DNA of 64,000 bases. It comes from an uncultured Clostridia bacterium. GTDB lineage: Bacteria; Bacillota; Clostridia; TANB77; CAG-508. The stretch spans positions 5,590 through 69,589 of the forward strand of contig CALXHG010000005.1 of the NCBI GenBank assembly GCA_944388045.1, in the 5' to 3' direction. The notes below the pieces were generated by a model, which did not search any database, was not told where the DNA came from, and worked only from the letters and a program-made list of their open reading frames with translations. Position numbers and translations under genes: made by a program. Positions 42,558 through 64,000 of this stretch are shown here, piece after piece; position 1 is the stretch's first letter; every line of letters begins with the position of its first letter.

Positions 42558-43064
42558 GTGAAAAGACAAATAATTATAATAAGAATAATACTAATAATTT
42601 TATTAATAATAACATTTTTTTATATTTTTAATTTTTCAAGCCAAGACTCAGAAAAATCTGGGAACTTAAGCAGAACAATAACAGTAAGTGTAACAAAAAA
42701 TATAAAAAAAATACAAGAACTAGATTATAATAAAAAAAATGATGTATTAAATACAATTGAAAAAGTAATTAGAAAATTAGCTCATTTTTCTGAATATACT
42801 TTTTTAGGAATATTATTAATGTCATTAATGAGTACATATAATTTAAAACAGAGAAATAAATTTGTATTAAGTATAGGAATAGGGTTTTTATATGCATGTT
42901 CTGATGAGTTCCATCAGTTATTTGTACCAGGAAGAACTGCAAAATTCACAGATGTATTAATAGATACGTCAGGTGTTATTGTAGGCAGTGTAATAATATT
43001 TCTAGTAATTTCAATTATAAAAAAAACAATAGAAAAAAAGAAAAAATTGGTAGTTGATAATTAA
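42558..43064 (+). CDS. VanZ-family membrane protein
   Basis: RKLAHFSEYTFLG and DEFHQLFVPGR motifs. GTG start after AAGGAGG. Confidence 0.8.
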   Translation: MKRQIIIIRIILIILLIITFFYIFNFSSQDSEKSGNLSRTITVSVTKNIKKIQELDYNKKNDVLNTIEKVIRKLAHFSEYTFLGILLMSLMSTYNLKQRNKFVLSIGIGFLYACSDEFHQLFVPGRTAKFTDVLIDTSGVIVGSVIIFLVISIIKKTIEKKKKLVVDN

Positions 43065-43200
43065 TCTATCAATTTTTTTTATTTGATAATTACTTGAAAT
43101 ATTTTTTTAGAGTTTATAAATATTATTTTATATACTTGAACTATTTATTACGATGTTATAAAAATTAATGATAGTATCAATTTTTTATTAACTGTTTTTA

Positions 43201-43229
43201 TTGACATATATATATAAAGATTATATAAT
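43201..43229 (+). promoter_or_regulatory. Consensus promoter TTGACA-N17-TATAAT upstream of surface protein 1
   Basis: Hexamers at 43201-43206 and 43224-43229. Confidence 0.55.
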
Positions 43230-43487
43230 ATTTATGAAAATTTTAATAAATAAACAATTTTATCAAAAGAAGAATGTACAAAATTTTGGGGCTTATTTAA
43301 TTACAAAATTAAGATGTGCATTTTTTTATTCAAAAAATATATTTTAAAAATGATAAAAATAATAATTAAATAAAAATATTTAAAATAGTTATTTAATATA
43401 ATTATAAAAGTCAGTTTGATAAGTAATCATAATATAATTCATCAGTTATTAAAAAAAATATTAATAAAAATAGAAAGGGGAATTAAA

Positions 43488-46400
43488 ATGAAAAAAAGAA
43501 TTATTAGTTTTCTAATTTTACTAACAATGTTAAGCACAATTATTTTAGGAGCAACATCAAATGTAGTTATGGCAAAAACAGAAGAGATGGTTCAGAATTC
43601 TTCAAATAAAACATTAGCAACAACTGTTTCTAATAATGAAACAGTATCTATAAATAATTTGAACAATGAGACTGCAACAATGAACGAACCAAGCAATGAG
43701 ACATATACATTAGATGAATTATTAAATGATGAACAAGAACAAAATGAATTAAAACAACTTTTTGAAAAAGTATCAAATCCAATAGAAGAGGAAAAAGAAG
43801 AAAAAGCAGTATTAACAACAATGCAAGACATAACATATAAAGTGCCAAATGAAGGAGGTTCATCAGAGTATTTACAAGGTATATATATACCAGGATATGA
43901 CTTTTTTATTAATACCAGTACTGTTACAAACACACAAACAAATGAAACAAAAAGTTATTTTAAAATATTTAAACATGATGTAATAAACAATACAAATAAA
44001 AAAATCTATGATTCTACAAATGATAATCCTTCTGTATATGAAGTAACATATCGTGTAAGAGATGATATGTTATACATATTATATGTAGCAGATTACAAAA
44101 CATCAGTTAAAAAATATTCAACAACAAAAATTATTGGAATTAACTTAGTTACAGAAGCAATAGTAATGAAACAAAGTTTTAATATAGAATTAGATATGTC
44201 ATATATTGAAAGTTTTGCAGTAGATGGAGCTCAAAGAGTATATTTACCATATAAAGGTACAGGACTAAAAGTATTTGATAAAAACGGAAAAGTATTATAT
44301 GATTTTGCCCCAACTGATAATCAAGAAGGAAAATATTTTAATTATATAAAAGGAATATCTCCTAATGATAAAATATTATTTTTTGAGGTAATGTATAAAT
44401 ATAGTGAGTCTAAATATAATACTCAAACTGTTTACGAAGGAATGCAAAAACTAAACAATGGTGTATTTGTAAATAAAGAAGGATGGACTGTTTATGGAAG
44501 AACGTTTCCTAGCATATATTCACAAAACCCAATGTGGTACTTTATAGATGATAATGGAACATATGCTGTAGACCAATATGGAAGAATAGCAAAATTTAAC
44601 TATAATGTAACAGATACAAATATGGGAGTTGACAGAGAAATTGTTTTAGATTTAGCATCTGGGGTATATGATTATGGAGCATATGCTTATAGACCATATT
44701 ACCCAAATGTATGTACAAATGAAAATAACATATATATTGTAGGAGCAAATGGCAATATATATATAGTAAATAAAACAACATTAAAATGTACTCAATATAT
44801 TTCAACAGGAATAAAAGATTATACAGATATAAGAAGCATAAATTATTATGAACAAAGTATTTTCATGTTAACAAAACCAGATTTCGATTATTACATGAAA
44901 CAAATAAAATTAAATAACAGTAATATAACTACAATACAAAATCTTATAATATCAGAAAATAAAACAACATCACGTACAATATCAGATATAGTAGCAAAAT
45001 ATAAACAAACATCACCAAAATATGATTATAATAAATCAATATATAAAATAACACCAAGTTGGAAAAATCCATATAAAGCAGGAAGTTTGCAAGATGGAGT
45101 TGTAACTGATACAATAAACAGACTAAATTATTATAGATGGTTAGTTGGAGTAAATGAAATAGCAGTAAATACAAGTAAATTAGACAGAAATCAAAAAGGA
45201 GCAGTAATAAGTAAAGCAAATGGAACAATAAGTCACTATCCAACTCAACCAAGTGATATGGATGATGCATTTTATGAAGAAGCATATGATGGATGTAATG
45301 CAAAATATGAAGAAGGAGATACATATTCAGGAAATGTATCTTATGGAGACAGGAGACCATATCAAGCAATAGAAGGATTTGTAAGTGACTTGTATAATGT
45401 AACAATAGGAAGTGCAACAGGACACAGACAAAGTATGTTAGACCCAAAAGCAACTGCAATAAGTTTTGGACAATGCGAAGAATTTTCAACAGCATCAGTA
45501 TATTATGATGAAGATAAAGATGTAACAAGTTCTAAATTTTATGCATTTCCATCAGCAGGATATTTTCCAAACACAGAAATGGCAGTAAGTGAATATTGGT
45601 CAATATATTTAACTGGAGCAGTATCAGGAACAGCAAGAGTAAACTTTACATATAAAGGAAAAACATATGCAGGAACAGGTTTATTATTTGAAAGCGGATA
45701 TCCAGCATTAAGTTTTAGAATGCCAGATGAGTTACAAAAACTTTTAGGTAGTACATATGATAACATACCTGGTGGAACAGAAATACAAGTAGAAGTATTG
45801 GGATTAAAAGATGAAAACTTAAATAATGTAACATATAGATATAAAGTAAACTTTTTTGATATGAAAGCAGAAATGCCAAGTCCACAAGATGTGGCAGATT
45901 TAATATTTGATTATAAATTTTATGCAGATAATTATCCAGATTTAAAGAAAGCATTTGGATATAATGAGGGAGCATTAAAAAATCATTGGTTAACAGATGG
46001 AATAAAAGAAGGAAGACAATCATCAGCAGTATTTGACCTTAAATATTATGTATATAATAATGAAGATATAAAGAAAGCCTTTGGAACAAATTATAATTCA
46101 GCATATAATCATTTTATAACAACAGGATTTTCAGAATTAAGACCAAGTTCAAATGAATATTATGGAAATTATTATAAAGATAATAATATAGATTTAAAAA
46201 ATTTTTCAGCTTATAATTTAATGAAACATTATATGCAATTTGGTAGAAAAGAAGGAAGAAAAGCAACAAATGTAATAGATAAAACACCAGTAGATATAAG
46301 ACAATATTTGCTAGATTATAATATATATACAACATTAAAAGATAATATAGACTTACAAAAAGCCTTTGGAAATGATCAAGGGGCATTAAAAAATCATTGG

Positions 46401-47357
46401 GAAACATATGGAATACCAGAAGGAAGAATAGCATCATTAGTATTTGATGCAGAATTTTACTTAAATAAATATGCGGACTTAAAGAAGGCTTTTGGAAATA
46501 ATTATACAAAAGCATATGAACATTTTGTAACAGACGGAATCAAAGAAGGAAGACAGGGTTCAAGATATTTTGATGTAAAATATTATTTAACAACACATAA
46601 AGATATAAAAAATGTATATGGTGATAATTATACAAAAGCTTTAAAACACTTCGTAACAAAAGGAATGAAAGAAGGAAGAGTAGCAAGTGCAGAATTTAAT
46701 ATAAAACAATATAAAGAAAATTATGAAGATTTAAGAAAAGCATATGGAAATAATTATATAGAATATTATAAACATTATATAAATCATGGATTAAAAGAAG
46801 GAAGAAATGCACAAACGCCAATAATAAGGAAATTATCAACATTTGAAGAATATTTGTACAGAGAGAATGTATATTTAAGATTAAATAATGATGTAAAAAA
46901 AGCATTTGGAAATAATAGTACAAAAATAAAAAATCATTGGATAACAGATGGAATAAAACAAGGTAAAATAGCATCATTAGTATTTGATGCAAAATATTAT
47001 TTAAATAAATATCCAGATTTAAAGAAAACCTTTGGAAATGACTATGAAAGAGCATATAATCATTTTATAACAGCAGGAATAAAAGAAGGAAGACAAGGTT
47101 CAAAGTATTTTAATGCAAAATATTATATGAATAAATATCCAGATTTAAAGAAAGCCTTTGGAACAAATTATCAAAAAGCATTAGAACATTTTGTAATGAA
47201 TGGAATAGGAGAAGGAAGAGTAGGAAGCGCAGAATTTAATGTAAAAAATTATAGAGCAAATTATAAAGATTTGGATAAAGCATATGGAAAAGTTTATATA
47301 GAATATTATCTTCATTATATGAATTTTGGGATAAAAGAAGGAAGAAAACCAATTTAA
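43488..47357 (+). CDS. Secreted multidomain protein 1: signal peptide, unassigned beta-rich N-domain, CAP/SCP (YkwD-like) domain, 11 copies of a ~42-aa C-terminal repeat
   Basis: MKKRIISFLILLTMLSTIILGATSNVVMA signal peptide after the GGGG RBS. CAP motifs INRLNYYRWL and GHRQSMLDP..ISFG. Repeats span 45906-47354. Confidence 0.85.
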   Translation: MKKRIISFLILLTMLSTIILGATSNVVMAKTEEMVQNSSNKTLATTVSNNETVSINNLNNETATMNEPSNETYTLDELLNDEQEQNELKQLFEKVSNPIEEEKEEKAVLTTMQDITYKVPNEGGSSEYLQGIYIPGYDFFINTSTVTNTQTNETKSYFKIFKHDVINNTNKKIYDSTNDNPSVYEVTYRVRDDMLYILYVADYKTSVKKYSTTKIIGINLVTEAIVMKQSFNIELDMSYIESFAVDGAQRVYLPYKGTGLKVFDKNGKVLYDFAPTDNQEGKYFNYIKGISPNDKILFFEVMYKYSESKYNTQTVYEGMQKLNNGVFVNKEGWTVYGRTFPSIYSQNPMWYFIDDNGTYAVDQYGRIAKFNYNVTDTNMGVDREIVLDLASGVYDYGAYAYRPYYPNVCTNENNIYIVGANGNIYIVNKTTLKCTQYISTGIKDYTDIRSINYYEQSIFMLTKPDFDYYMKQIKLNNSNITTIQNLIISENKTTSRTISDIVAKYKQTSPKYDYNKSIYKITPSWKNPYKAGSLQDGVVTDTINRLNYYRWLVGVNEIAVNTSKLDRNQKGAVISKANGTISHYPTQPSDMDDAFYEEAYDGCNAKYEEGDTYSGNVSYGDRRPYQAIEGFVSDLYNVTIGSATGHRQSMLDPKATAISFGQCEEFSTASVYYDEDKDVTSSKFYAFPSAGYFPNTEMAVSEYWSIYLTGAVSGTARVNFTYKGKTYAGTGLLFESGYPALSFRMPDELQKLLGSTYDNIPGGTEIQVEVLGLKDENLNNVTYRYKVNFFDMKAEMPSPQDVADLIFDYKFYADNYPDLKKAFGYNEGALKNHWLTDGIKEGRQSSAVFDLKYYVYNNEDIKKAFGTNYNSAYNHFITTGFSELRPSSNEYYGNYYKDNNIDLKNFSAYNLMKHYMQFGRKEGRKATNVIDKTPVDIRQYLLDYNIYTTLKDNIDLQKAFGNDQGALKNHWETYGIPEGRIASLVFDAEFYLNKYADLKKAFGNNYTKAYEHFVTDGIKEGRQGSRYFDVKYYLTTHKDIKNVYGDNYTKALKHFVTKGMKEGRVASAEFNIKQYKENYEDLRKAYGNNYIEYYKHYINHGLKEGRNAQTPIIRKLSTFEEYLYRENVYLRLNNDVKKAFGNNSTKIKNHWITDGIKQGKIASLVFDAKYYLNKYPDLKKTFGNDYERAYNHFITAGIKEGRQGSKYFNAKYYMNKYPDLKKAFGTNYQKALEHFVMNGIGEGRVGSAEFNVKNYRANYKDLDKAYGKVYIEYYLHYMNFGIKEGRKPI

Positions 47358-47409
47358 ACAATTAAAATAAAGATTGAATATTGACACTTAGTGCGAAAAT
47401 CTTTAAACT

Positions 47410-47449
47410 AAAAATAGTATAGATATAGAAATATATTTATACTATTTTT
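47410..47449 (+). terminator. Rho-independent terminator
   Basis: AAAAATAGTATA / TATACTATTTTT. A near-identical hairpin follows paralogue 3. Confidence 0.7.
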
Positions 47450-47530
47450 GTGTTAAAAAATAATGCAACTATTACTTTATACAATTAAAATGTTTAAAAT
47501 CTAATACTATGGAAAATTGTAATTTAATAA

Positions 47531-47559
47531 TTGACAAAAATTCAAAACAAAAATATAAT
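47531..47559 (+). promoter_or_regulatory. Consensus promoter TTGACA-N17-TATAAT upstream of surface protein 2
   Basis: Hexamers at 47531-47536 and 47554-47559. Confidence 0.55.
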
Positions 47560-47679
47560 AATGTTGTAAATTTTAAATAGGAGTCTTTAAATATTTACAT
47601 CTTTATAAATTCTTTTAAAATTTAAAATCATACAAAAGAATAATTAAAAGACATGGAAATAAAAAGAAAGGGGAACAAA

Positions 47680-50196
47680 ATGAAAAAAATAGTTAATAGA
47701 CTAGTTATTTTACTTGCAATTTTTATTGCATTAATATTAGGAATAAATTCAAATGAAGTTATGGCAAAAAATACAGAAGACATAATAATATCAGAAAATG
47801 ATACAATAACACACACAATAAAAGAAATAGTAGAAAAATACAAAGAAACATTACCAAAATTTAATTATAATGAATCAATTTATAAAACAACACCAAGTTG
47901 GGAAAATCCATATTCAGCAGGAAGTATAAAAGATAAAGTAATAACAGATACAATAAACAGACTAAACTATTATAGATGGCTAACAGGTGTAGATGAAATA
48001 AAAATAAATTATGATAAATTAGACAGAAATCAAAAAGGAGCAGTTTTAAGTAAGGCAAATGAAAGCTTAAGCCATACTCCAGAAAAACCAATTGATATGG
48101 ATGATGAATTTTATCAAGAAGCATATGATGGATGTAATGCAAAATATGAAGAAGGAGATACATACTCAGGAAATGTATCTATGGGAGATTTAAGACCTTA
48201 TCAAGCAATAGAGTCCTATGTAAATGAATTATATAATGTTACTCCAGAAAGTGCAACAGGACATAGACAAAGTATGTTAGATCCTACTGCAACATCAATG
48301 AGTTTTGGACATTGTGAAGAATATTCAACAGTATCTATATTTTATGATTATAATAAAGATGTTACAAGTTCAAAATTTTATGCATATCCACCAGCAGGAT
48401 ATTTTCCAAATACAGAAATGGCAGTAAGTGAATATTGGTCAATATATTTTACAGATGAAGTATCTGGAACTGCAAGAGTAAATTTTACATATAACGGAAA
48501 AGTTTACCAAGGAACAGGATTAGTTTTTGAAAAAAATTATCCAGTATTAAGTTTTAGAATGCCTGAGGAATTAGAAAATATTTTAGGTTATCCATATGAA
48601 TATATTCCAGTAGATACAGAAATACAAGTAGAAATATTAGGGTTACAAGATAAAAATTCAAATAATTTAATATATAAATATACTGTAAACTTTTTTGATA
48701 TGGTGGCAGAAAATCCAACATCACAAGATGTAGCAAATTTAATATTTGATTATAAATTTTATGCAGATAAATACCCTGAACTAAAAGAAAAATATGGTTA
48801 TAATGAAACACTATTAAGAAGTCACTGGTTAACAACAGGAATAAATGAAGGAAGACAATCTTCAGCAGTATTTGATCTTGAATATTATGTATATAATAAC
48901 GAAGATATAAAGAAAGCCTTTGGAACAAATTATAATTCAGCATATAATCATTTTATAACAATAGGATTTTCAGAACTAAGACCAAGCTCAAATGAATATT
49001 ATGGAAAATATTATAAAAACAATAATTCAGATTTAAAAAATTTCTCAGCATATAATTTAATGAAACATTATATGCAATTTGGTAAAAAAGAAGGAAGAAA
49101 AGCAACAAATGTAATAGATAAAACACCAATAGGTATAAAACAATACTTACTGGATTATGATATATATACAACATTAAAAAATAACAATGATTTAAAAACA
49201 GCTTATGGAAATAATCAAGAAGCATTAAAAAATCATTGGGAGAGATTTGGAATAAAAGAAGGAAGAAAAGCATCATTAGTATTTGATGCAAAATTTTATT
49301 TAAATAAATATACAGATTTAAAGAAAGCGTTCGGAAATAATTATGCAAAAGCATATGAACATTTTGTTGAAAATGGAATAAATGAAGGAAGACAAGGTTC
49401 AATGTATTTTGATGTAAAATGGTTTGCAGAAAATAATAAAGATATAAAACAAATTTATGGAACAAATTATACAAAAATATTAGAATATTTTGTAACAAAT
49501 GGAATAAAAGAAGGAAAACAAGGAAGTGCAGAATTTAATGTAAAAATTTATAGAGAAAATTATACAGATTTAAGAAATGCATATGGAACAAATTACAAGG
49601 AATATTATAAACACTATATAGATTATGGAAATGCAGAAGGAAGAAATGGATTAACAGAAGTAGTAAGAAAACTAACAGAAATAGAAGAATATTTATATAA
49701 TGAAAAAGTATATACAAGAGCAAATGAAAACATAGCAGAACTATATAAAAATGATTCAACAAAAATAAAAAATCATTGGATAAAATATGGAATTAAAGAA
49801 GGAAAAATAGCATCATTAGTATTTGATGCAAAATATTATTTAAATAAATATCCAGACTTAAAGAAAACCTTTGGAAATGACTATGAAAGAGCATATAATC
49901 ATTTTATAACAACAGGAATAAAAGAAGGAAGACAAGGTTCAATGTATTTTAGTGCAAAATATTATATAAACCAATATCCAGACTTAAAGAAAGCTTTTGG
50001 ATCAAATTATAAAAACGCATTAGAACATTTCGTAATAAATGGAATAGGAGAAGGAAGAGTAGGAAGTGCAGAATTTAATATGAAAAATTATAGAGCAAAT
50101 TATAAAGATTTAGATAAAGCATATGGAAAAGTTTATATAGAATATTATCTTCATTATATGAATTTTGGAATAAACGAAGGAAGAAAGCCTATATAG
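47680..50196 (+). CDS. Secreted protein 2: signal peptide, CAP/SCP domain, 11 copies of the ~42-aa repeat (lacks the N-domain)
   Basis: MKKIVNRLVILLAIFIALILGINSNEVMA signal peptide. Collinear with residues ~490 to the end of protein 1. Repeats span 48745-50193. Confidence 0.85.
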   Translation: MKKIVNRLVILLAIFIALILGINSNEVMAKNTEDIIISENDTITHTIKEIVEKYKETLPKFNYNESIYKTTPSWENPYSAGSIKDKVITDTINRLNYYRWLTGVDEIKINYDKLDRNQKGAVLSKANESLSHTPEKPIDMDDEFYQEAYDGCNAKYEEGDTYSGNVSMGDLRPYQAIESYVNELYNVTPESATGHRQSMLDPTATSMSFGHCEEYSTVSIFYDYNKDVTSSKFYAYPPAGYFPNTEMAVSEYWSIYFTDEVSGTARVNFTYNGKVYQGTGLVFEKNYPVLSFRMPEELENILGYPYEYIPVDTEIQVEILGLQDKNSNNLIYKYTVNFFDMVAENPTSQDVANLIFDYKFYADKYPELKEKYGYNETLLRSHWLTTGINEGRQSSAVFDLEYYVYNNEDIKKAFGTNYNSAYNHFITIGFSELRPSSNEYYGKYYKNNNSDLKNFSAYNLMKHYMQFGKKEGRKATNVIDKTPIGIKQYLLDYDIYTTLKNNNDLKTAYGNNQEALKNHWERFGIKEGRKASLVFDAKFYLNKYTDLKKAFGNNYAKAYEHFVENGINEGRQGSMYFDVKWFAENNKDIKQIYGTNYTKILEYFVTNGIKEGKQGSAEFNVKIYRENYTDLRNAYGTNYKEYYKHYIDYGNAEGRNGLTEVVRKLTEIEEYLYNEKVYTRANENIAELYKNDSTKIKNHWIKYGIKEGKIASLVFDAKYYLNKYPDLKKTFGNDYERAYNHFITTGIKEGRQGSMYFSAKYYINQYPDLKKAFGSNYKNALEHFVINGIGEGRVGSAEFNMKNYRANYKDLDKAYGKVYIEYYLHYMNFGINEGRKPI

Positions 50197-50300
50197 AATT
50201 TTATAGATGCTATAAAAGGTTGAAAAATAAATGTTTTGTATAAACAGAATATTGTTATTTTCCAGCCTTTTAAGAGTATTTAGAAGGGAATGTGATTAAA

Positions 50301-53644: not shown

Positions 53645-53853
53645 GTACATGAATGTCAAGAAATATAAAAAAATTTTAGTAAAACTAAAAACAAAAGCAA
53701 AAATTTACATAAAATATAAAAATGTATTGAAATTATGTAGCACATATAGTATAATAATATGTGGTTTTAAAAATTTAAAAATTATTTTTAAAACAGTAGA
53801 AAAAATAGTAAAAAGAGAAGAAGCTATATAATATTAAATAGGGGGAATTTTTA

Positions 53854-54543: not shown

Positions 54544-54667
54544 TTTCTGGTTAGAAAGTAATTGTTATCATAAAATTGTATAAATTTAAACAAAATATTG
54601 AATTTACATAATTTATGATGTATAATATTATAGATTAAAAAGTTTATCTGAGGGGGAAATATGATAA

Positions 54668-55384
54668 ATGGAAATAATGAAAGAAAATCTAAAATATGTT
54701 GCAAAAGATAATTTAACATCATTAGTACCAGAAGATGCATTTGATGTACCAAAAAAATCACAAAAAAAAGCTGATATGTTCTTAAAAAGAACAATAGATA
54801 TATTTATTAGTATTTTTGGCGTAGTAGCTTTATTTCCGCTAACAATAAGTATTTACATAGCAAATATAATATGCAAAGATAAAGGACCAATTTTCTATAT
54901 ACAAAATAGAATTGGACAAAATGGTAAAATATTTAAATTATATAAATATCGTTCGATGGTTGTAGGAGCTGACGATATACTTGAAAAGTATTTAGAAGAA
55001 AATGAAGAAGCCAAAAAAGAGTATCAGGAATATAAAAAACTAAAAAATGATCCAAGAATAACTAAAGTAGGTGAGTTTATTAGAAAAACAAGCATAGATG
55101 AATTTCCACAATTTATAAATGTATTAAAAGGAGATATGAGCTTAGTTGGTCCAAGACCTTACTTAGAGAAAGAAAAAGAAGATATGAATGGTTATTATAA
55201 ATTCATAATAACTTGTAAACCTGGTTTAACAGGATTGTGGCAAATTAGCGGAAGAAGTGATTGCACTTTTCCCGAAAGAATAGATTTGGACATGAAATAT
55301 TACAATAACCATAACTTAAAATCTGATATAAAAATATTATTTAAAACAGCTATGAAGATTATAAAAAGAGAGGGAGCTATATAG
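54668..55384 (+). CDS. Small phosphoglycosyl transferase (bacterial sugar transferase), copy 2
   Basis: Same architecture: KYRSM, DEFPQFINVLKGDMSLVGPRP. Confidence 0.85.
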   Translation: MEIMKENLKYVAKDNLTSLVPEDAFDVPKKSQKKADMFLKRTIDIFISIFGVVALFPLTISIYIANIICKDKGPIFYIQNRIGQNGKIFKLYKYRSMVVGADDILEKYLEENEEAKKEYQEYKKLKNDPRITKVGEFIRKTSIDEFPQFINVLKGDMSLVGPRPYLEKEKEDMNGYYKFIITCKPGLTGLWQISGRSDCTFPERIDLDMKYYNNHNLKSDIKILFKTAMKIIKREGAI

Positions 55385-55468: not shown

Positions 55469-56548
55469 ATGTCAAACAATTCTAATTGTATGTTTTCAAT
55501 AATAATTCCTGTATACAATGCAGAGAAATATATAGAAACAACAGTTAAATCTATATTGAATCAGACTTACAAAAATTTTGAACTACTATTAATAAATGAT
55601 GGTTCAAACGATAATAGTAAACAAATTTGTGAAGAACTTTCAAAAAAAGATTCTAGAATAAGGTTCTTTGATAGAGTAAATGAAGGTGCGTCAAAAAGTA
55701 GAAATTATGGAATCGAAAAATCAAGTTTTGAATATATTTGTTTTTTAGATGCGGATGATTATGTTGAGAACAATATGCTTCAGGAATATGTTAAAATTCT
55801 TGAAAAGTATAAAAATGTTGAAATGATAACTTGTGGATTTTTTTCTGAAATTCTTGATGAAAAAAATCGAAAAAAATCACAAATAGATACTATAAATTAT
55901 ACTGAAAAGTATTATAGTACTTATAAAGAGCTGAAAGATGATTTTGTTACTTTATGGGATAAGGCAATATTGTATAATGTATGGAACAAAGTATATTTGA
56001 AAAGTATAATAAAAAAGTATAATATAACATTTATACAAGCTACGTTAGGCGAAGATGTTTATTTTAATCAACAATATTTGCTAAAAATTAATAGCTTATA
56101 TAATACTAATAAATGTTTTTATCATTATGTTAGAGGAAGAAGTAGTTCAATTACAGGACAATACATTAAAAATTTATTTGATATAAGATTAGAAGAAAAT
56201 GTTAAATTAAAGAAATATTTTAAGCAATTTGGATTAAAAAAAATAGAATATGAAGAATTTTGCGCTAGAAGATATATTGAAAGAACATTAGGATGTATTG
56301 AAAATCTATTCAATTCTCAATGTGAGCTAAAATTTAAAGATAAATATAATGAAATAAAGAGAATTATCTATAATGAATCAACATTAAGAGATTTAAAAAA
56401 GATGAAACCGAAAAGTCTTAAAATAAAAATATTGTTAATTCCATATAGAATAAAATCAGTTCCATTGGCTTTTATAATGGGTAAGATGTTGGCTTTTTGT
56501 AAAATTAAATTACCTAAATTATTCAACTTATTAAAAAATAGGAGATAG
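55469..56548 (+). CDS. Family-2 glycosyltransferase
   Basis: FSIIIPVYNAEKYI...LINDGSND...LDADD. Confidence 0.8.
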   Translation: MSNNSNCMFSIIIPVYNAEKYIETTVKSILNQTYKNFELLLINDGSNDNSKQICEELSKKDSRIRFFDRVNEGASKSRNYGIEKSSFEYICFLDADDYVENNMLQEYVKILEKYKNVEMITCGFFSEILDEKNRKKSQIDTINYTEKYYSTYKELKDDFVTLWDKAILYNVWNKVYLKSIIKKYNITFIQATLGEDVYFNQQYLLKINSLYNTNKCFYHYVRGRSSSITGQYIKNLFDIRLEENVKLKKYFKQFGLKKIEYEEFCARRYIERTLGCIENLFNSQCELKFKDKYNEIKRIIYNESTLRDLKKMKPKSLKIKILLIPYRIKSVPLAFIMGKMLAFCKIKLPKLFNLLKNRR

Positions 56549-56557: not shown

Positions 56558-57670
56558 ATGAAAAAAGTAGATATAATAACATTACATAGAGTTGTAAATT
56601 ATGGTTCAGTATTGCAAACATATGCATTACAAGAAAAAATAAAAGAAAAAGGTTTTGAAGTAGAAACAATTGATTATTATCCTGAAAGACTACATATGAT
56701 TGGAATGCTAAAAAGATTAAAAACAAAAAAAGAAATTCTTAGAAAAAATCCTATTGTTAGACTAGGGGCTCAATGTGTAATATTACCATCATATATTCAA
56801 CGTTTTGCTATGTTTAAAAAATTTTTAAAGAAATATATAAAAATGACAGAAAAAACTTATTTTACAAAAGAAGATATAGAAAAAGATATTCCACAAGCAG
56901 ATATATATTGTACAGGAAGTGATCAAGTGTGGAATAGTGATTGGAATGAAAAGATAGAATATCCATTTTTCTTAGATTTTGTACCAGATAATAAAAAGAG
57001 GATTTCTTATGCGGCTAGTTTTGGAAAAAAATCATTAACTGAAGAAGAAATACCAGAAACAAAAAGATTGATTAATAAATATAAATATTTATCTATGAGA
57101 GAGCTTTCAGGAGTAGAAATTTTAAAAAAACTAGGAAGAGATGATGGAATTAATGTTTTAGATCCAACTTTATTATTAAATAAATCTGAATGGTTAAAAA
57201 TAGCTTCAAACAAATATGTTGGGAAAAAGTATGTTTTGATGTACAATTTGAATAGAAATAAAAAAATATATAAGTATGTGGAAAAATTAGCCAAAGAAAA
57301 GGGATTAGATATCTACTATATTAGTTATAATTTACATGAATGCTTTCATAAAGGAAAAATGAAGTGTAATGTAAAAGTTGAGGACTTTTTATCACTTATT
57401 GCAAATGCAAGCTATGTGGTTACAGATTCATTCCATGCTACAGCTTTTTCAATTAATTTTAATACACCTTTTATGATTATATTTCCAGAAAAATTTAGTA
57501 CAAGATTAGCAAGCATACTAGAAGTTACTGGATTACAAGATAGGATTGTAAAAGATTATAATAATATTGAGTTAGCAGATAAAAGAATTGATTTTACACA
57601 TGCAAACAAAATTTTAGATGAAGAGAGAAAAAAAGCTTCTCTATACTTAGATAAAGCATTAAATGATTAA
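56558..57670 (+). CDS. Polysaccharide pyruvyl transferase family protein
   Basis: ITLHRVVNYGSVLQTYALQ N-terminus and ...TDSFHATAF motif, typical of PF04230-type enzymes. Confidence 0.75.
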   Translation: MKKVDIITLHRVVNYGSVLQTYALQEKIKEKGFEVETIDYYPERLHMIGMLKRLKTKKEILRKNPIVRLGAQCVILPSYIQRFAMFKKFLKKYIKMTEKTYFTKEDIEKDIPQADIYCTGSDQVWNSDWNEKIEYPFFLDFVPDNKKRISYAASFGKKSLTEEEIPETKRLINKYKYLSMRELSGVEILKKLGRDDGINVLDPTLLLNKSEWLKIASNKYVGKKYVLMYNLNRNKKIYKYVEKLAKEKGLDIYYISYNLHECFHKGKMKCNVKVEDFLSLIANASYVVTDSFHATAFSINFNTPFMIIFPEKFSTRLASILEVTGLQDRIVKDYNNIELADKRIDFTHANKILDEERKKASLYLDKALND

Positions 57671-57684
57671 TATTTGGAGGAGTT

Positions 57685-58155
57685 ATGGAAGAAAAATTTA
57701 TCAAAATCATTAATAAAAATGAATGTACAGGATGCCGAGCTTGTGAACAAGTTTGTCCAGTTAATGCTATAACAATGAAAGAGGATATAGCACATCTGAA
57801 GGAATTGCATATCTAATAAAAAATGGTTATAGAACATGGAGGAGTTGTTTTTGGAAGTGCTTATGATGAAAAATTTATGCCAAGACAAATATATGTTACT
57901 AATATAAATGATTTACAAAAGTTGAGAGGTTCTAAATATGTAACAAGTGATACTCAAAATACATTTCCAAAAGTCAAAAAATTTTTAGAAGAAGGAAAAA
58001 TTGTACTTTATACTGGAGTTCCATGTCAAATAGGTGGCCTAAAAAAAGATTATGACAATCTATATACGATAGACATTATTTGCCATGGTGTACCAAGTCA
58101 AAAGATATTTAAAAAGGGGGAAAAATGGATAAAAAAATTAGAGTTTTATATATAG
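57685..58155 (+). pseudogene. Degraded coenzyme F420 hydrogenase/dehydrogenase beta-subunit-like (4Fe-4S) gene
   Basis: ATG 57685 gives CTGCRACEQVCPVNAI, then a TAA at 57814. A second piece (57823-58155) has GGVVFGSAYD, LRGSKYV, GVPCQIGGLK and ICHGVPS. The second ferredoxin motif and the C-terminal domain are absent. Confidence 0.6.
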
Positions 58156-59243
58156 TTCCGTCTTTAAAAATTTATGATGGAGTTGCTAGTTATGCAATGA
58201 ATTATTTTAGAAGTATTGATAGAGATAAAATACAAATAGATTTTGTTATAGGAATAAATGAAAGAAGTGTATATTTTGATGAAGTTGAAAAATGTGGCAG
58301 TAAAATATTTTATATTCCTAAAATCAGAATAAAAAATAGTATTAAAACAATAAAAAAAATTAAAACTTTTTTAAAAGAAAATGCAAAAAATTATGATATA
58401 ATACATTGCCATGTTTTAAATATGGGAGCATTTTATTTGCATTATGCTAAGAAATATGGAATAAAAGTTAGAATTTTACATAGTCATGTAACTAAAACAG
58501 CAGATTCAAAATTACATGAAATAAGAAATAAGGTATTGTTACCTTATGCAATAAAAAATGCAAATTATTATTGTGCGTGTTCAAAAGATGCTGGAGATAA
58601 AATTTTTATAAACAAGGTTGTTCATGTAATAAAAAATGCAATTAATGGAAAAAGATTTGAATATAATAAAAATGTTAGAGATGAATTAAGAAAATATTAT
58701 GAAATTGAAAAAGATACTTTTGTTATAGGAAATATTGGAAGATTGTGTAATCAGAAAAACCAAAAATTTCTTATAAAAATTTTTAAAGAAATAAATAAAA
58801 AAGTAAAAAATTCTAAATTAATAATTGTTGGAAATGGACCATTAGAGTATGAATTAAAAGAAATTGCTAAAGAAAATTCATTAGAAAAGGATATTTTATT
58901 TTTAGAACCAATGAATAATATTGAAAAAATTTATCAAATATTTGATGTATTTGTATTACCTTCGATATATGAGGGGCTAGGAATAGTACTATTAGAAGCT
59001 CAAATTTCAGGACTTCCTTGTGTGGCTTCTGATGTTGTTCCTGAAGAGGCTCAAATTTCTGAATTGTATAAAAAAATATCTTTAAATGATACTGTTGAAA
59101 ATTGGGTAGAAAATATAATTAATAGTAAAGTAATTAATAGAAAAACTAATTTAAATGGTTTAATAGAGAATAATTATGAAATTGAAACTGAAGCAAAAAA
59201 ATTAATGGAATACTATAACCAGCTTTTGAAAGAGGAAAATTAG
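58125..59243 (+). CDS. GT4 (group 1) glycosyltransferase
   Basis: PSIYEGLGIVLLEAQISGLPCVASD EX7E motif. Confidence 0.85.
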   Translation: MDKKIRVLYIVPSLKIYDGVASYAMNYFRSIDRDKIQIDFVIGINERSVYFDEVEKCGSKIFYIPKIRIKNSIKTIKKIKTFLKENAKNYDIIHCHVLNMGAFYLHYAKKYGIKVRILHSHVTKTADSKLHEIRNKVLLPYAIKNANYYCACSKDAGDKIFINKVVHVIKNAINGKRFEYNKNVRDELRKYYEIEKDTFVIGNIGRLCNQKNQKFLIKIFKEINKKVKNSKLIIVGNGPLEYELKEIAKENSLEKDILFLEPMNNIEKIYQIFDVFVLPSIYEGLGIVLLEAQISGLPCVASDVVPEEAQISELYKKISLNDTVENWVENIINSKVINRKTNLNGLIENNYEIETEAKKLMEYYNQLLKEEN

Positions 59244-60326
59244 ATGACTATTTATATAATTATAATTATATTAACGATATTATTAGGATATTGTTTAAAA
59301 CCTAATAAAAATCAAAAAAATAAAAAAATATATATTATAATAATTTTTTCTATATTGGCTATTGTTGCAGCAATTAGAAATTATACAGTTGGAGTGGACA
59401 CACCTCAATTTTGTGATGCATTTGAAAAAATTTCGAGAATGACGATAGAACAAGCAAAAGAGAGTACAAGATATGAAATTGGATTTATAACTCTATGCAA
59501 ACTTTTAAGTTACATTACTACTGATTATCAAATTTTAATTATTGTAACTAGTTTATTTATAATGTATAGTGTAGGACAGTTTATATATAAGGAGTCAAAA
59601 GATTGTATTTTAAGTTCTTTACTTTTTATTTTATTAAATTGTTATGCAATGTATATGAATGTAATGAGACAAGCTATTGCAATCTCAATAATCCTTTTAG
59701 GATATACATATTTTTTTAAAAATAATAAAATTATAAAGTATTTCTTTACTATTATTTTTGCTAGTTTATTTCACCAATCAGCAATAATAATGATAGTTAC
59801 AATTTTTCTACAAAAATTAAAATTTAAGAATAAATATTTTCTTATAACAATTATAACTTCAGGTATTATTTTTGTTTTTGCAAATCCAATTCTTAATTTA
59901 TTTACTAAACTATTTACTACATATTCTGGATATTTGGAAGGTCAATTTGCAGTTTCAAATTATTTTGCATCAGTTTTAAATGCACTTGTTGCAATAGTTT
60001 TCTTTGTGATAGGTATTTGTTATAATAAAAATAAATTTAAAGAAAAGGATAGAACAGTATTAGATTTTTATGCATTTATGATAATGCTAAATGTTATTTT
60101 TTTTGTTGCAACTATAAAAATAAGTATATTTAATAGATTAACTACATATTTTAATATTTTTAATGTTGTATGGATTCCCGAATTTATAAGCAATATACAG
60201 AAAAAAGAAGATAAAAGGTTTATTTTGTTAATATTATTGTTATGTACATTATTTTATTGGGGAATTATATCAATTTATAGACCAGAATGGCATGGTGTAG
60301 TACCATATAAAACTTTTTTTGAATAG
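59244..60326 (+). CDS. EpsG-family / Wzy-like polysaccharide polymerase
   Basis: About 10 TM segments. N-terminal ...RNYTVGVDT motif typical of EpsG. Confidence 0.7.
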   Translation: MTIYIIIIILTILLGYCLKPNKNQKNKKIYIIIIFSILAIVAAIRNYTVGVDTPQFCDAFEKISRMTIEQAKESTRYEIGFITLCKLLSYITTDYQILIIVTSLFIMYSVGQFIYKESKDCILSSLLFILLNCYAMYMNVMRQAIAISIILLGYTYFFKNNKIIKYFFTIIFASLFHQSAIIMIVTIFLQKLKFKNKYFLITIITSGIIFVFANPILNLFTKLFTTYSGYLEGQFAVSNYFASVLNALVAIVFFVIGICYNKNKFKEKDRTVLDFYAFMIMLNVIFFVATIKISIFNRLTTYFNIFNVVWIPEFISNIQKKEDKRFILLILLLCTLFYWGIISIYRPEWHGVVPYKTFFE

Positions 60327-60336
60327 AGAGGAAAAA

Positions 60337-61191
60337 ATGGAAAAAAAAATTGGAATTATATTATTAAATTATAAAAATTATAATGATACTATAGAATGTA
60401 TAAAATCTATAGAAAATCAAAACTATTCAAATTATTGCATAATAGTAGTAGACAATAATTCACAAAATGAATCTGTAAATGAAATAAAAATTTCTTGTAA
60501 AGATATGAATAATATTTATATAATAGAAAATAAAGAAAACGTAGGTTTTGCAAAGGGAAATAATATTGGAATTAAATTTGCTAAGGAAAATTTAAAATGT
60601 GATTTTGTATTTGTATTAAATACAGACACAGTACTTTTTGACGAAAATACATTAAAAAAATTAATATCATTATATAAACCAGAAGAAAAAATAGCAATTA
60701 TAAATCCAATGTGTTGTGATATAGAAAAAATTATTCAAAAGCCATATTTAATTTATAATTCAAAAATGTGGAAATATGTTATAAGAATGGGAATATATAT
60801 TTTAAAACAAATAATAAAATATATATTTAATTTAGATAAATATAAAAAAAATAATGAGAAATTTAATGTAGAAGAAATTAAAGAAAATAAATATATAATA
60901 CAAGGATGTGCATATATTTTAACACCAGATTTTTTTAAATATTATTCTCAAATTTTTCCCGAAACTTTTTTATATTGTGAAGAATTAGCATTAGCTATTT
61001 ATATTGAAAAGGCTAATCTAAAAATTGAAAATAGTACAGATGTTTTAATTATACATAAAGAGGCTGGCTCAACAAAAGAAATTTTAAAAGATAGAAAAAA
61101 GAAAAAAATAAAATTTCAAATTCAAAGTTATTTTAAAGTTGTTAAACTTTTATTTTATGATTATAAAAAAATAAAAAAATTATATAATTAA
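60337..61191 (+). CDS. Family-2 glycosyltransferase
   Basis: IGIILLNYKNYNDTIECIKSI...VVDNNS...GFAKGNN. Confidence 0.8.
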   Translation: MEKKIGIILLNYKNYNDTIECIKSIENQNYSNYCIIVVDNNSQNESVNEIKISCKDMNNIYIIENKENVGFAKGNNIGIKFAKENLKCDFVFVLNTDTVLFDENTLKKLISLYKPEEKIAIINPMCCDIEKIIQKPYLIYNSKMWKYVIRMGIYILKQIIKYIFNLDKYKKNNEKFNVEEIKENKYIIQGCAYILTPDFFKYYSQIFPETFLYCEELALAIYIEKANLKIENSTDVLIIHKEAGSTKEILKDRKKKKIKFQIQSYFKVVKLLFYDYKKIKKLYN

Positions 61192-61280
61192 AAGTGTATT
61201 AAGGAAAAAATAATTATAAATGATAAAAAATATTAATGAAAAAATATATATTATAATGAAAGATGAAGTGAAGAAAGTTT

Positions 61281-62303
61281 ATGATTAAGATAAGTGTTAT
61301 TATACCTATTTATAATTCTAAAGAATATATAAATAGATGTATAGATAGCTTAGTAAATCAAAAGAATTTTAATGATTATGAGATAATTTTAGTTGATGAT
61401 GGTTCATCAGACGGAAGCGAAAAAGTTTGTGATGAGTATGAAAAGAATTATAAAAATATAAAAGTTTTTCATAAAAAAAATGAAGGTGTAAGTATTGCAA
61501 GAAATAAAGGAATAAAAGAGTCAAAAGGGGACTATATAACATTTGTAGATAGTGATGACTATGTAGATGAATATATGCTATATAATTTTTCTAATGCTAT
61601 TGAAAAATTGCAAAGTGATATTATTTTTTGCGGATATAATAATATATTTGTGAAAAACAATAAGAAAATTATAATTAATGCATGCAAATTTGATAATATA
61701 GATTTATGTGAATTTAATGACAAATATTTCAAAAATTATTATTGCAATTATTTAATACATGGACCATATAATAAGATTTATAAAAGTTGCATAATTAAAG
61801 ATAATAATATAAAGTTTGATGAAAATCTTAAAATATGTGAAGACGCTATTTTTGTAATAGATTGTTTGAAAAAATGTAAAACAATATCAAGTATAGAAGA
61901 ATGTTATTATAATTATATGCAAAACGGAACAAGTGATACATTAATTAGAAAATTTAGCGAAAATGAAATAGAAGCAAATTGGAAACTTTATTATAGTTTT
62001 GAAAAACTTTTAGAAATAGGTAATTTAAAAAATGATAATATTAAAATTGTAAAAGCTGACTTTATAAATAGATTTATTGTTTGTTTGAAAAAAATGTTTT
62101 TAAAGTCTAACTATAATAGAAAAAAATTAATTGAAGAAATTAATAAATATATACATGATGTTAGAAACTTGGATTTTAAAGGAACTAAATATAAAAGTAA
62201 TATTTTAAATAATTTAATTTATTTAGGAATAAAATTTAAAAAAAAATATATAACATATATTTTTTTAAAACTATATGTAATATTAAAGCATAGTTTTCTT
62301 TAG
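61281..62303 (+). CDS. Family-2 glycosyltransferase
   Basis: ISVIIPIYNSKEYI...VDDGSSDGS...VDSDD. Confidence 0.8.
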   Translation: MIKISVIIPIYNSKEYINRCIDSLVNQKNFNDYEIILVDDGSSDGSEKVCDEYEKNYKNIKVFHKKNEGVSIARNKGIKESKGDYITFVDSDDYVDEYMLYNFSNAIEKLQSDIIFCGYNNIFVKNNKKIIINACKFDNIDLCEFNDKYFKNYYCNYLIHGPYNKIYKSCIIKDNNIKFDENLKICEDAIFVIDCLKKCKTISSIEECYYNYMQNGTSDTLIRKFSENEIEANWKLYYSFEKLLEIGNLKNDNIKIVKADFINRFIVCLKKMFLKSNYNRKKLIEEINKYIHDVRNLDFKGTKYKSNILNNLIYLGIKFKKKYITYIFLKLYVILKHSFL

Positions 62304-62312
62304 GAGGATATA

Positions 62313-64000
62313 ATGAAGAAAAACAAAAGCAAAAAAATTATTTTATATATTGTTATTTTTTTAATTATTATAACTACTATTACATTAATATTGTTAAAAA
62401 AAATTAAAATTTTTAATTATATCTATAATACTTTTAATAGTATTTCTAATAGTAAAATTGAGAAAAATTTGAATGAAGAGGTAAACATTGAATTTAATGA
62501 TAATGATAATATAATAATTGGAAATAAAATTAGTATTAAATTAACTCAAAATGTAGATGAATTATATAATAATTATGAAATTAATATTTATTGTGATAAT
62601 AATAAGATTTCTAATTTTGAGCTTGCAGAAAAAAGTAAAGAAGTTGAAATTAATTTTGATAAAGAAGGAAAACATAGTTTAAAAATTGATATTTATAAAG
62701 GAACTGAATTAATAAAAACTCAAAATAATGATTTTTTTGTAATAAATGAATATAAACATCAATTTGCTGAAAAAACGTCTCGTTTTGGAATGTCAACTCA
62801 TTTTGGATTAAATTATAACAGAGATAGTATTAGTAAAGGATTAGATTTATTATTTAATTTAGGAATTAAAAATATAAGAGATAATATTCTTTGGCAACAT
62901 GTTGATAAAGGTGAGGGTAAATATAGTTATAACATATCAGATTCATGGGTGCCATATATTATGGAAAAAAATATAAATATACTAGCTTTGCTTAGTGGGG
63001 GTTATGAAGATGAAAATGGAAAAATCCATTCACAAATAACATCAGAAAGTGAATTATTAAGATATGGAGAATATGTTAAAAGTGTAGTTAATAAATATCC
63101 TGATATAATAGAATATCAAATATTTAATGAACCAAATGCTGGATGGACTGATAATTCTGAAAAAGAATGGTATGCAAAATCAACAATCGAAGTATATAAT
63201 AAATTAAAAGAAACTAATAAATACAAAAGAACTGTAGTTGGAAGTGTTGCAATAAAATATTTAGAGGAAAAAGAATCAATTGATTATTTAACAGATATAG
63301 GTGCTAAATATGGTGCTTTAAAAGAATCTAATACATTTGCTTATCATATGTATACGTCTCAAGAAAATATGCAAAGATTAAAAGAAGTTACAGAATATGC
63401 TAATGAAGCAATAAATAATATAGGTGGATTTACTAACATCTATGTAAATGAAATGGGAATAACAAGTAGTGATGATATAACAGAAATTGACAGAATACAG
63501 AAAATAATAAAACAAATGGTAACTTACATAAACTATGGTATTTCTAAAGTGTATATATATGATTTTAGAGATACAGATAAAGAGGATGGAACTTCAAGAT
63601 ATGGAATTGTAACAAATGATTATATTCCAAAAGAATCTTATTTTATATTAAAAAGATTTTTGGAAAATACTAATGGAGCAGAGTATATTGGAAAAATCAA
63701 AAACCTAGAAGGTATTGAAAATGATAATTTAGAGGTACATGTATATGATAAAGATGGAAAACCAAAAATTATTGTATGGTCAAGTAGTAGTAAAATCAAT
63801 ATAACAGTTCCATATGCAAATTTTAAAGCAACAGATTTATATGGAGAAGAAATACAACCAGATGAAAGTGGAAACTTAGTAATAACAAAAATGCCAATAT
63901 ATATAGATGAAGTAGATTATAACTATTTTTACCAAGCAATATCAAATATGGCAACAGAAAAATATAATGAGTTTACTGAAAAATTTGCTGGAGAAATAGC
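62313..64000 (+). CDS. Membrane-anchored clan GH-A (GH5/GH39-like) glycoside hydrolase, 3' end outside window
   Basis: Not in the supplied ORF track. AGGAGG at 62302-62307, ATG at 62313, and the frame is open to the window end (checked codon by codon). N-terminal TM segment, IFNEPN (acid/base) and VNEMG (nucleophile) motifs. Confidence 0.7.
   Translation, partial: MKKNKSKKIILYIVIFLIIITTITLILLKKIKIFNYIYNTFNSISNSKIEKNLNEEVNIEFNDNDNIIIGNKISIKLTQNVDELYNNYEINIYCDNNKISNFELAEKSKEVEINFDKEGKHSLKIDIYKGTELIKTQNNDFFVINEYKHQFAEKTSRFGMSTHFGLNYNRDSISKGLDLLFNLGIKNIRDNILWQHVDKGEGKYSYNISDSWVPYIMEKNINILALLSGGYEDENGKIHSQITSESELLRYGEYVKSVVNKYPDIIEYQIFNEPNAGWTDNSEKEWYAKSTIEVYNKLKETNKYKRTVVGSVAIKYLEEKESIDYLTDIGAKYGALKESNTFAYHMYTSQENMQRLKEVTEYANEAINNIGGFTNIYVNEMGITSSDDITEIDRIQKIIKQMVTYINYGISKVYIYDFRDTDKEDGTSRYGIVTNDYIPKESYFILKRFLENTNGAEYIGKIKNLEGIENDNLEVHVYDKDGKPKIIVWSSSSKINITVPYANFKATDLYGEEIQPDESGNLVITKMPIYIDEVDYNYFYQAISNMATEKYNEFTEKFAGEI

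Follow-up and report, generated by a model that had tools for sequence, protein, structure and literature searches.

What do the repeat tails of three neighbouring surface proteins hold on to, and is their ligand made by the polysaccharide genes next door? This question is raised by a 64,000-nucleotide stretch of DNA from an uncultured Clostridia bacterium (GenBank assembly GCA_944388045.1, contig CALXHG010000005.1, positions 5,590 to 69,589; referred to below, at its full length, as the window), in which three tandem genes, which we call A, B and C, encode proteins ending in arrays of a 42-residue repeat and are followed on the same strand by a polysaccharide locus. The G+C content of the window is ~24.6% and nearly all genes of the region lie on its + strand. 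An earlier, sequence-only reading of this DNA had taken the tails for wall-binding modules and the (possibly pyruvylated) polymer of the adjacent locus for their ligand. The first part of this proposal stands: protein architecture and genomic context, from which we infer binding, strongly support the tails as devices that would hold proteins non-covalently on the cell wall. The second part found partial support at most and is a reasonable hypothesis on the unlikely side, and we lean, with some reserve, towards a generic, lineage-wide wall anchor, whose ligand would stay constant while the capsule-like neighbouring polysaccharide varies and whose linkage to that locus would represent a surface island.

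A, B and C are three paralogous secreted proteins, each with a Sec-type signal peptide as read from the sequence. The proteins, given as open reading frames (ORFs), and their tails are:

43416–47357, + strand: protein A, 1313 residues, with signal peptide, N-terminal domain, CAP-like domain and repeat tail (ORF)
45891–47354, + strand: tail of A, 11 repeats of 42 residues arranged 3+4+4 (repeat analysis)
47653–50196, + strand: protein B, 847 residues, with signal peptide, CAP-like domain and repeat tail (ORF)
48730–50193, + strand: tail of B, 11 repeats of 42 residues arranged 3+4+4 (last four-repeat block modelled)
50292–53402, + strand: protein C, 1036 residues, with signal peptide, N-terminal domain, CAP-like domain and repeat tail (ORF)
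52476–53399, + strand: tail of C, 7 repeats of 42 residues arranged 3+4 (repeat analysis)

The repeat, previously read as ~42 residues long, has a period of exactly 42 residues and is present in 11, 11 and 7 copies. It follows the motif F-D-x3-Y-x3-[NY]-x-D-L-x2-A-[FY]-G-x-N-x6-H-[FWY]-x3-G-x2-E-G-R, with a conserved Arg and His in every copy. The charge of the proteins is split, the tails having isoelectric points (pI) of 9.1–9.4 (9.3 for the tail of A, with a net charge of +20) and the remainder of each protein 4.5–4.9. Protein A likely starts at the ATG at 43488, and its N-terminal domain is beta-rich and fast-evolving; a comparable domain is found in C and not in B. The CAP profile (PF00188) gave 22.7 bits, against a cut-off of 21.1, with the isolated domain of B, 19.2 bits with whole B and no match in whole A or C. 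The non-tail part, modelled from a window-only alignment, was predicted poorly, with a predicted local distance difference test score (pLDDT) of 47.

No match to the tail was found in Pfam, NCBIfam or PHROG, the sole Pfam signals (Castor_Poll_mid and TetR_C_9) being spurious and sub-threshold. The SLH profile (PF00395) did not match the isolated tail at E ≤ 10 or the whole proteins at E ≤ 0.01, the CWB2 profile (PF04122) matched neither tails nor whole proteins, and the profiles CW_binding_1, CW_7, ChW, LysM, SH3_3, PG_binding_1, SPOR and Cu_amine_oxidN1 gave no match in the tail. In the PDB there was no match by sequence, profile or fold (best Foldseek E 10), and literature searches found no description of this repeat, which does not disprove the existence of one. 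AlphaFold folds the last four-repeat block of B compactly and entirely into alpha helices, three to each repeat (pLDDT 97.1, predicted template modelling score 0.91). One unit of the module would consist of three or four such 42-residue three-helix repeats packed as a single compact all-alpha domain, and A, B and C each end in two or three of these units. Non-covalent anchoring by terminal repeats and the neighbourhood of surface-protein and wall-polymer genes are already known kinds of arrangement; the module itself is new.

Relatives of the tail reach E values of 5e-92, far past chance. A profile built from 34 four-repeat blocks recovered 24,641, 12,978 and 3,624 cluster representatives (clustered at 50% identity) at E ≤ 1e-3, ≤ 1e-10 and ≤ 1e-30, respectively. 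Gram-negative carriers join the tail to OmpA in Chitinophaga and Bacteroidota and to PG_binding_1 and M10 in Corallococcus, and the repeat is also found in Archangium, Bdellovibrionales, Azomonas, cyanobacteria and Saccharibacteria. Giant-virus proteins share the repeat fold (Foldseek against BFVD; single-repeat root-mean-square deviation 1.2–1.6 Å, 32–46% identity). These giant-virus carriers are glycosyltransferases, an FkbM methyltransferase and a dTDP-sugar reductase (in Hyperionvirus, Fadolivirus, Harvfovirus and Megavirus), which suggests a broader tie of the repeat to glycan-handling enzymes. Below, L001–L095 denote the compared loci of relatives and P0001, P0026, P0035 and P0121 related proteins. 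P0001 (475 residues) combines a PHP (DnaE-like) N-terminus with tails, its terminal four-repeat block being 64% identical to the window's; it sits on a 1.9-kb contig and is probably a chimera of assembly or gene calling.

The case for a wall anchor comes from the domains to which the tail is joined. A catalytic domain active on peptidoglycan is present in 65 of its best 120 relatives; the partners include NlpC/P60 (20), CHAP (19), Amidase_2 (10), M23 (8) and YkuD (4), single cases of Amidase_3, GH25, phage lysozyme and deacetylase, and, in others, CAP, SH3_3 or LysM. The 96 tail proteins of species-representative genomes, a scan done with a narrower tail alignment so that distant members are under-sampled, have as partners ricin-type lectins (19), YkuD (9), GH25 (8), Polysacc_deac_1 (5), CAP (4), Amidase_3, Glucosaminidase and NlpC/P60 (3 each), M23 (2) and also GH5. 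In the nearest low-GC gut Clostridia the tail is joined to GH25, YkuD, Amidase_3, CHAP, CAP, LRR plus CAP, transglutaminase-like and CotH domains.

Two relatives are, judged by their sequences and gene neighbours, bona fide phage endolysins with the module at the C-terminus. P0035 (CHAP plus tail) is encoded directly 3' of Phage_holin_5_2 amid tape-measure and tail genes, and P0026 (Amidase_2 plus tail) lies on a phage contig; both contigs have 27–28% G+C, and the catalytic parts of both proteins match endolysin PHROGs, their tail parts having no PHROG match. The module is rare in catalogued phages (one INPHARED record and three IMG/VR contigs), so that its endolysin role rests on metagenomic contigs. 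Since the endolysins carry exactly one four-repeat block, this block is probably the functional unit.

If the module is an anchor, what does it bind? We propose that it would hold A, B and C on the wall non-covalently, its multivalent units providing avidity, and that the ligand would most likely be a wall component which remains constant amid polysaccharide change, with peptidoglycan and some conserved portion of a polymer linked to the wall as candidates. Co-location with the polysaccharide genes would then represent a 'cell-surface island' that retains and exchanges surface proteins and glycans jointly, rather than an obligate anchor/ligand pair. As far as sequences can tell, constancy of the ligand is supported by the tail identities to loci L004 and L002, the mosaic structure of the polysaccharide locus, the existence of pyruvyl-transferase loci devoid of tail genes, and the fusions to OmpA and PG_binding_1 in Gram-negative bacteria. 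To follow the comparison of loci, the genes flanking the tail genes are needed; every gene inventoried in the sequence-only reading was found on the + strand and in its place, including VanZ 5' of the three tail genes:

42558–43064, + strand: VanZ-family membrane protein (PF04892, E 1.8e-25)
53854–54543, + strand: small phosphoglycosyl transferase (PGT) 1 of the Bac_transf family, WbaP/EPS_sugtrans-like (PF02397, E 1.3e-66)
54668–55384, + strand: small PGT 2, Bac_transf (PF02397, E 1.5e-63)
55469–56548, + strand: GT2 glycosyltransferase (PF00535, E 4.5e-35)
56558–57670, + strand: polysaccharide pyruvyl transferase (PS_pyruv_trans), capsule or exopolysaccharide (EPS) type (PF04230, E 1.1e-41)
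57682–58155, + strand: remnant of an FrhB/FdhB-like Fe-S gene, frameshifted and 3'-truncated (comparison with the L004 orthologue)
58125–59243, + strand: GT4 glycosyltransferase (PF00534, E 2.2e-30)
59244–60326, + strand: EpsG-family (Wzy-type) polymerase (PF14897, E 6.9e-56)
60319–61191, + strand: GT2 glycosyltransferase (PF00535, E 1.8e-15)
61281–62303, + strand: GT2 glycosyltransferase (PF00535, E 6.2e-38)
62313–64000, + strand, the ORF exceeding the window: putative membrane-anchored PslG-like glycoside hydrolase, clan GH-A (PslG match, E 1.1e-7)

The polysaccharide locus is a nucleotide mosaic, 74–96% identical to that of the close relative L004. Along the region, identity to L004 is 96.5% in HPF, 91% in VanZ, 75–81% in the tail genes, 90% in PGT 1, 96% across GT4-EpsG-GT2 and 74% in the last GT2. 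The two tandem PGT genes stand in reversed order (window 53854–55384, L004 10810–12330), and of the two only that at 54668–55384 has orthologues in L002 (69% identical) and L006 (57%). L002 is 97% identical to the window in LexA and 88% in HPF, yet its entire glycosyltransferase set differs (DUF1972-GT4, Wzy_C, GT4, GT2, GT4, UDP-glucose dehydrogenase, GT2, Wzx), and the 10 kb retrieved from it show no pyruvyl transferase. Do the tails follow these exchanges? The tails are 61–75% identical between the window and L004, which has the same locus (HPF 97%, EpsG 98%). Block by block, the tail of A is 75, 69 and 61% identical to that of L004 and 77, 63 and 58% identical to that of L002, with its different locus; the CAP-like domain is 93% (L004) and 87% (L002) identical. 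As the tails are equally similar to both, their divergence does not follow the type of polysaccharide locus.

Nor does the pyruvyl transferase generally accompany the tails. Outside the orthologous group none was found within 10 kb of a tail gene by local phmmer/jackhmmer, and a six-frame search with the tail profile found no tail gene within 7–10 kb in four related pyruvyl-transferase loci (L080, L087–89, L090–92 and L093–95). The enzyme belongs to a very large family of capsule/EPS type, with 7022 matches at E ≤ 1e-20. Its identification as CsaB was rejected, the TIGR03609 equivalog model giving 23.1 bits against a cut-off of 213.1, which leaves a generic member of PF04230. As a claim of membership, the analogy that had been drawn with SLH proteins and CsaB thus fails on both sides, as the proteins have no SLH match either.

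Judged together with the loci of relatives, the neighbouring locus appears to be Wzx/Wzy-dependent and of the capsule/EPS type. An initiating transferase, a Wzy-type polymerase and glycosyltransferases are all present (Bac_transf twice, EpsG, GT2 three times and GT4); homologues of Wzx flippase, LCP ligase, Wzz, BY-kinase, CpsB and sortase were not found in the 64-kb window, which the locus exceeds. The fuller locus type was read from relatives reached via the PslG-like protein and the pyruvyl transferase (Pyr). L080 has the order Pyr-FrhB-GT4-EpsG-GT2-Wzx-acetyltransferase-GT2-IS110-PslG-like, followed by a sortase with small surface proteins and by Wzz-like, ParA-like kinase and CpsB phosphatase genes. 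In this 3' region of L080 (13036–18236), 5' of whose equivalent the window ends, the small proteins bear an LPKAG-type sorting signal beside the sortase and the Wzz-like/ParA-like/CpsB module. L090 and L092 read sortase-x-LCP-VanZ-PGT-GT2-Pyr onward and L093–L095 sortase-LCP-PGT-GT2-Pyr onward, without VanZ, both types ending with Wzx and a dockerin-bearing PslG-like protein; L087 and L089 read VanZ-PGT-GT2-Pyr-FrhB-GT4-EpsG onward. The Wzx flippase was found in L002, L080, L087, L090 and L093. An LCP gene lies 5' of VanZ in L090, directly 5' of the PGT in L093 and also in L006, and because related loci have this ligase the polymer of the locus is probably attached to peptidoglycan. By its place in these gene orders VanZ is a regular 5' member of the locus type, and VanZ families have been tied to exopolysaccharide and peptidoglycan lipid-carrier pathways (PMC12419801). 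The FrhB/FdhB-like gene (~400 residues) goes with the pyruvyl transferase in all relatives and is intact in L004, L080, L087 and L090; in the window only residues 8–216 of the 409-residue L004 orthologue are recoverable, in two frames.

The last ORF (62313–64000) had been called a membrane-anchored GH5-like hydrolase. Its translation does begin with a hydrophobic, presumably membrane-anchoring N-terminus, and GH5 is correct only at the level of the clan: there was no match to PF00150 at E ≤ 10, nor to Pfam at all, and the closest solved relative is PslG, a GH39 enzyme of clan GH-A (PDB 5bx9/4zn2; E 1.1e-7 over 327 residues, 22–348 against 28–371 of 5bx9). The catalytic motifs align, FNEPN with WNEPN of PslG (acid/base NEP) and NEMG with TEWG (nucleophile Glu). 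Full-length PslG-like relatives (P0121 and others; L090 18691–19608) have ~966 residues, within a span of ~920–1030, and a weak C-terminal dockerin (PF00404), an unexpected domain on the hydrolase of a polysaccharide operon.

Several observations weigh against a constant, locus-independent ligand. The five loci nearest to the window's tails (L002–L006) are orthologues, all situated at polysaccharide genes. In the window, L002 and L003/L004 the tail genes sit between VanZ and the initiating PGT (VanZ-tail(s)-PGT), L006 has the order LCP-x-tail-VanZ-PGT, and in L005 the UDP-glucose dehydrogenase gene lies directly 5' of the tail gene. The tails are thus embedded at two distinct points of an LCP-VanZ-PGT module and have been kept there despite replacement of the downstream glycosyltransferases, a hint of selection for linkage. 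Unrelated lineages have multi-tail clusters into which genes for other kinds of wall glycopolymer are mixed: dltAB, four tail proteins, Wzx and a TagF-like gene in L001, where four consecutive variant-tail enzymes lie between dltAB and the Wzx/TagF-like genes; tail-GLF-tail-acyltransferase-tail-tail in L035; Wzm/Wzt and a methyltransferase beside four tail genes in L041; tail-GLF-GT2-LicD-x-LicD-cytidylyltransferase-tail-GT2, with LCP nearby, in L053; and GT8-GT2-tail-tail in L073. With a set of 16 marker families, specific glycopolymer markers turned up in the flanks of 15 of the 79 tail loci, two or more of them in 7, a frequency to be read against our own rough estimate of 5–10% for random 20-kb windows rather than a matched control count. 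LCP in related loci makes the polymer probably wall-linked and thus available as a ligand. Finally, some family members lack a signal peptide or are fused to cytoplasmic glycosyltransferases, so that 'wall binding' may not cover the whole family.

The first neighbourhood queries, with the window's own proteins as sole queries, had left out the LicD, Wzm/Wzt, GLF and TagF pathways; the near-zero glycopolymer association outside the orthologous loci that they gave was an underestimate, corrected by the wider markers. The polymer types beside the tail clusters differ among lineages, so that no single defined epitope, a pyruvate ketal for instance, can be the ligand throughout. The variant-tail proteins of L001 (positions 1–11517, metagenomic, 38% GC) are a glucosaminidase-like enzyme, a Peptidase_C1 with a lectin-like domain, a CAP protein and a GH5 cellulase.

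How do other explanations fare on this evidence? The tails may specifically bind the polymer of the adjacent locus, possibly via a pyruvate ketal, in the way of SLH domains with secondary cell-wall polymers or of CWB2 with PSII. Such binding would account for tail genes within the 5' module of the locus in the window, L002, L003, L004 and L006 (and beside UDP-glucose dehydrogenase in L005), for the pyruvyl transferase in the window, L003/L004 and L006, and for the glycopolymer genes amid the multi-tail clusters of other lineages; the basic tails, with an Arg and a His conserved in each repeat, are compatible with an anionic ligand, and the LCP ligases of related loci would put the polymer on the wall. 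The Clostridioides difficile precedent that had been invoked for it is sound, the AP locus lying immediately 3' of the slpA/cwp locus and PSII binding CWB2 (PMC4973711). The transferase is, however, not CsaB and its family is far broader than the neighbourhoods of the tail family; related pyruvyl-transferase loci go without tail genes and, outside the orthologous group, tail genes without a pyruvyl transferase; and the tails of L002, with another glycosyltransferase set, resemble the window's just as closely. Among the features of the locus type are a PslG-like hydrolase and, in L080, genes resembling CpsC/D/B, as is typical of capsule/EPS. The module is found in Gram-negative bacteria and giant viruses as well; endolysins, moreover, carry it, and the endolysin binding domains known so far are directed at integral components of the wall and not at variable capsules. 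We regard specific binding of the neighbouring polymer as possible, if on the unlikely side. Unlikely, too, in our estimate, is its fullest form, in which the repeat would be a new glycan-binding fold and a third major anchor of Firmicutes beside SLH and CWB2, with the LCP-attached pyruvylated polysaccharide of its own locus as the ligand in this lineage, and with anchor and ligand passed on by inheritance and exchanged in a single cassette.

Two further explanations dispense with the anchor/ligand relation between tails and locus. Adjacency may be meaningless, a product of chance or of recombination at a hot spot on the edge of a variable island, with the repeat a general oligomerisation or protein–protein module. 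The mosaic structure and insertion sequences at such loci (IS110 in L080, transposases in L087), the 64 of 79 tail loci whose fetched flanks have no specific glycopolymer marker and the members without signal peptides would all fit, but the partners are consistently peptidoglycan-active enzymes, the module takes the C-terminal position of endolysins and independent lineages repeatedly show tail genes close to glycopolymer genes, which together make this improbable. Alternatively, the locus may serve protein glycosylation of the surface-layer (S-layer) type, a lipid-linked glycan being moved onto A–C as enzyme substrates. Large, strongly promoted tandem genes for paralogous surface proteins directly 5' of a PGT-initiated glycan locus recall the S-layer glycan (slg) clusters found beside S-layer genes in Geobacillus and Paenibacillus, and L002 and L006 encode a protein with a Wzy_C domain, a type that also occurs in O-oligosaccharyl:protein transferases (OTases). 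As far as the window shows the locus, it has an EpsG polymerase and no Wzy_C/OTase-like gene; LCP and CpsC/D/B-like genes of the relatives point to a wall-linked capsule, and loci of this type also occur with no tail protein in the vicinity. Glycosylation of A–C thus seems highly improbable, and the generic anchor within a surface island remains the reading that we favour.

The tail genes are, as predicted from the following signals, transcription units of their own, separate from the polysaccharide operon:

43201–43229, + strand: candidate sigma-70-type promoter TTGACA-17-TATAAT 5' of gene A (12/12, consensus match only)
47402–47457, + strand: terminator-like AT-rich 20-bp hairpin with U-run 3' of A (−19.2 kcal/mol, z −6.9)
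47531–47559, + strand: candidate sigma-70-type promoter 5' of gene B (12/12 consensus match)
53490–53532, + strand: terminator-like AT-rich hairpin with U7 3' of C (−17.1 kcal/mol, z −7.7)
53616–53644 and 53727–53755, + strand: candidate promoters 5' of the first transferase (11/12 consensus match)

The hairpins 3' of all three tail genes are stable (z −6.9 to −8.1), with U-runs only after A and C. With consensus promoters and terminator-like hairpins of their own, the tail genes would be neighbours of the polysaccharide genes rather than members of one operon. The AT-rich hairpins after genes A and C are near-identical (ATAGTATAGATAT...). The two 12/12 promoters before A and B suggest very high expression, in the style of S-layer or other major surface proteins.

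Within the genome the tails of A, B and C are 70–92% identical, which exceeds the identity between orthologues and points to homogenisation or a genome-specific constraint, not tied to the polysaccharide type. Recent gene conversion was considered and rejected as the source of this similarity: the paralogues are 79–84% identical in DNA and their longest exact match is 76 nt, values that fit older duplication or homogenisation better than recent conversion tracts. The number of paralogues differs, two in L004 and three in the window, and the surface proteins diverge much faster than their flanks (window 43416–53402 against L004 1551–10486), as would fit surface antigens or phage receptors under diversifying selection. 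At 39808–41541 of the window, 1,017 nt 5' of VanZ with the HPF gene between, lies a gene for a GH18 protein that also contains SH3_3 and Cu_amine_oxidN1 domains, so that this genome uses further wall-binding modules too.

How does the module compare with known systems? As with CWB2 in C. difficile, one non-covalent anchor would be common to many secreted clostridial proteins, both autolysins and large surface proteins, and the functional module is made up of some three to four repeats. There is no sequence kinship, however: the window's tails are predicted to be all-alpha with 42-residue repeats, against CWB2 units of ~90 residues, and the module also occurs in phage endolysins and Gram-negative bacteria. 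Surface-protein genes that directly adjoin a locus for a wall glycopolymer with LCP-type attachment are a feature shared with the PSII/AP region (PMC4973711), although PSII is conserved, in contrast to the window's locus, which is mosaic and swapped between close relatives. With SLH proteins, as in Bacillus anthracis and Paenibacillus alvei, the tails have in common tandem helical repeats forming one compact, putatively wall-binding unit and a pyruvyl transferase gene nearby, and by analogy the conserved Arg of each repeat could contact a carboxylate as in the SLH mechanism (PMC6081394). They differ in lacking an SLH match, in the failed CsaB equivalog and in that the tail does not generally go with a pyruvyl transferase at the level of the locus. 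The closest parallel in architecture is with CW_7, SH3b, LysM and choline-binding repeats of endolysins and autolysins, which have the same repeat organisation and likewise follow CHAP, amidase or NlpC/P60 domains at the C-terminus, in ~300-residue proteins encoded beside holin genes; the tail differs from these in having no match to their families, a predicted fold without PDB match and a rare occurrence in catalogued phages.

The locus itself resembles the psl operon of Pseudomonas aeruginosa in placing a membrane-anchored clan GH-A hydrolase, there PslG, within a polysaccharide operon, although the window's hydrolase is Gram-positive and its full-length relatives have extra C-terminal domains and a weak dockerin. 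Like streptococcal and lactococcal cps/eps loci, the window and its relatives hold LCP, a small PGT, glycosyltransferases, Wzy-type, Wzx, Wzz-like, BY-kinase and CpsB genes, with mosaic, serotype-like variation. In contrast to those loci, CpsC/D/B-like genes are at the 3' end (L080), surface-protein genes are inserted in the 5' module, VanZ can be listed as a fixed member (though L093–L095 do without it), and Wzx and LCP are not in the visible part of the window.

Many abundant uncultured low-GC gut Clostridia thus seem to hang autolysins, L,D-transpeptidases, CAP-domain proteins and large variable surface proteins on this module, and their phages put the same module on endolysins. It appears to be the main anchoring device of one such group of gut bacteria and of the phages that infect them. 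The module has neither a database model nor a solved structure, although it is carried by about 25,000 sequence clusters, among them members from myxobacteria, Bacteroidota, cyanobacteria and giant viruses. Knowledge of the ligand would explain how these bacteria build their surface, would allow them to be targeted or labelled (with engineered endolysins or probes fusing the tail to green fluorescent protein) and would reveal whether surface proteins and polysaccharides travel as linked cassettes. If the ligand is peptidoglycan, the module would represent a new peptidoglycan-binding fold; if it is the neighbouring polymer, a new anchor/ligand system.

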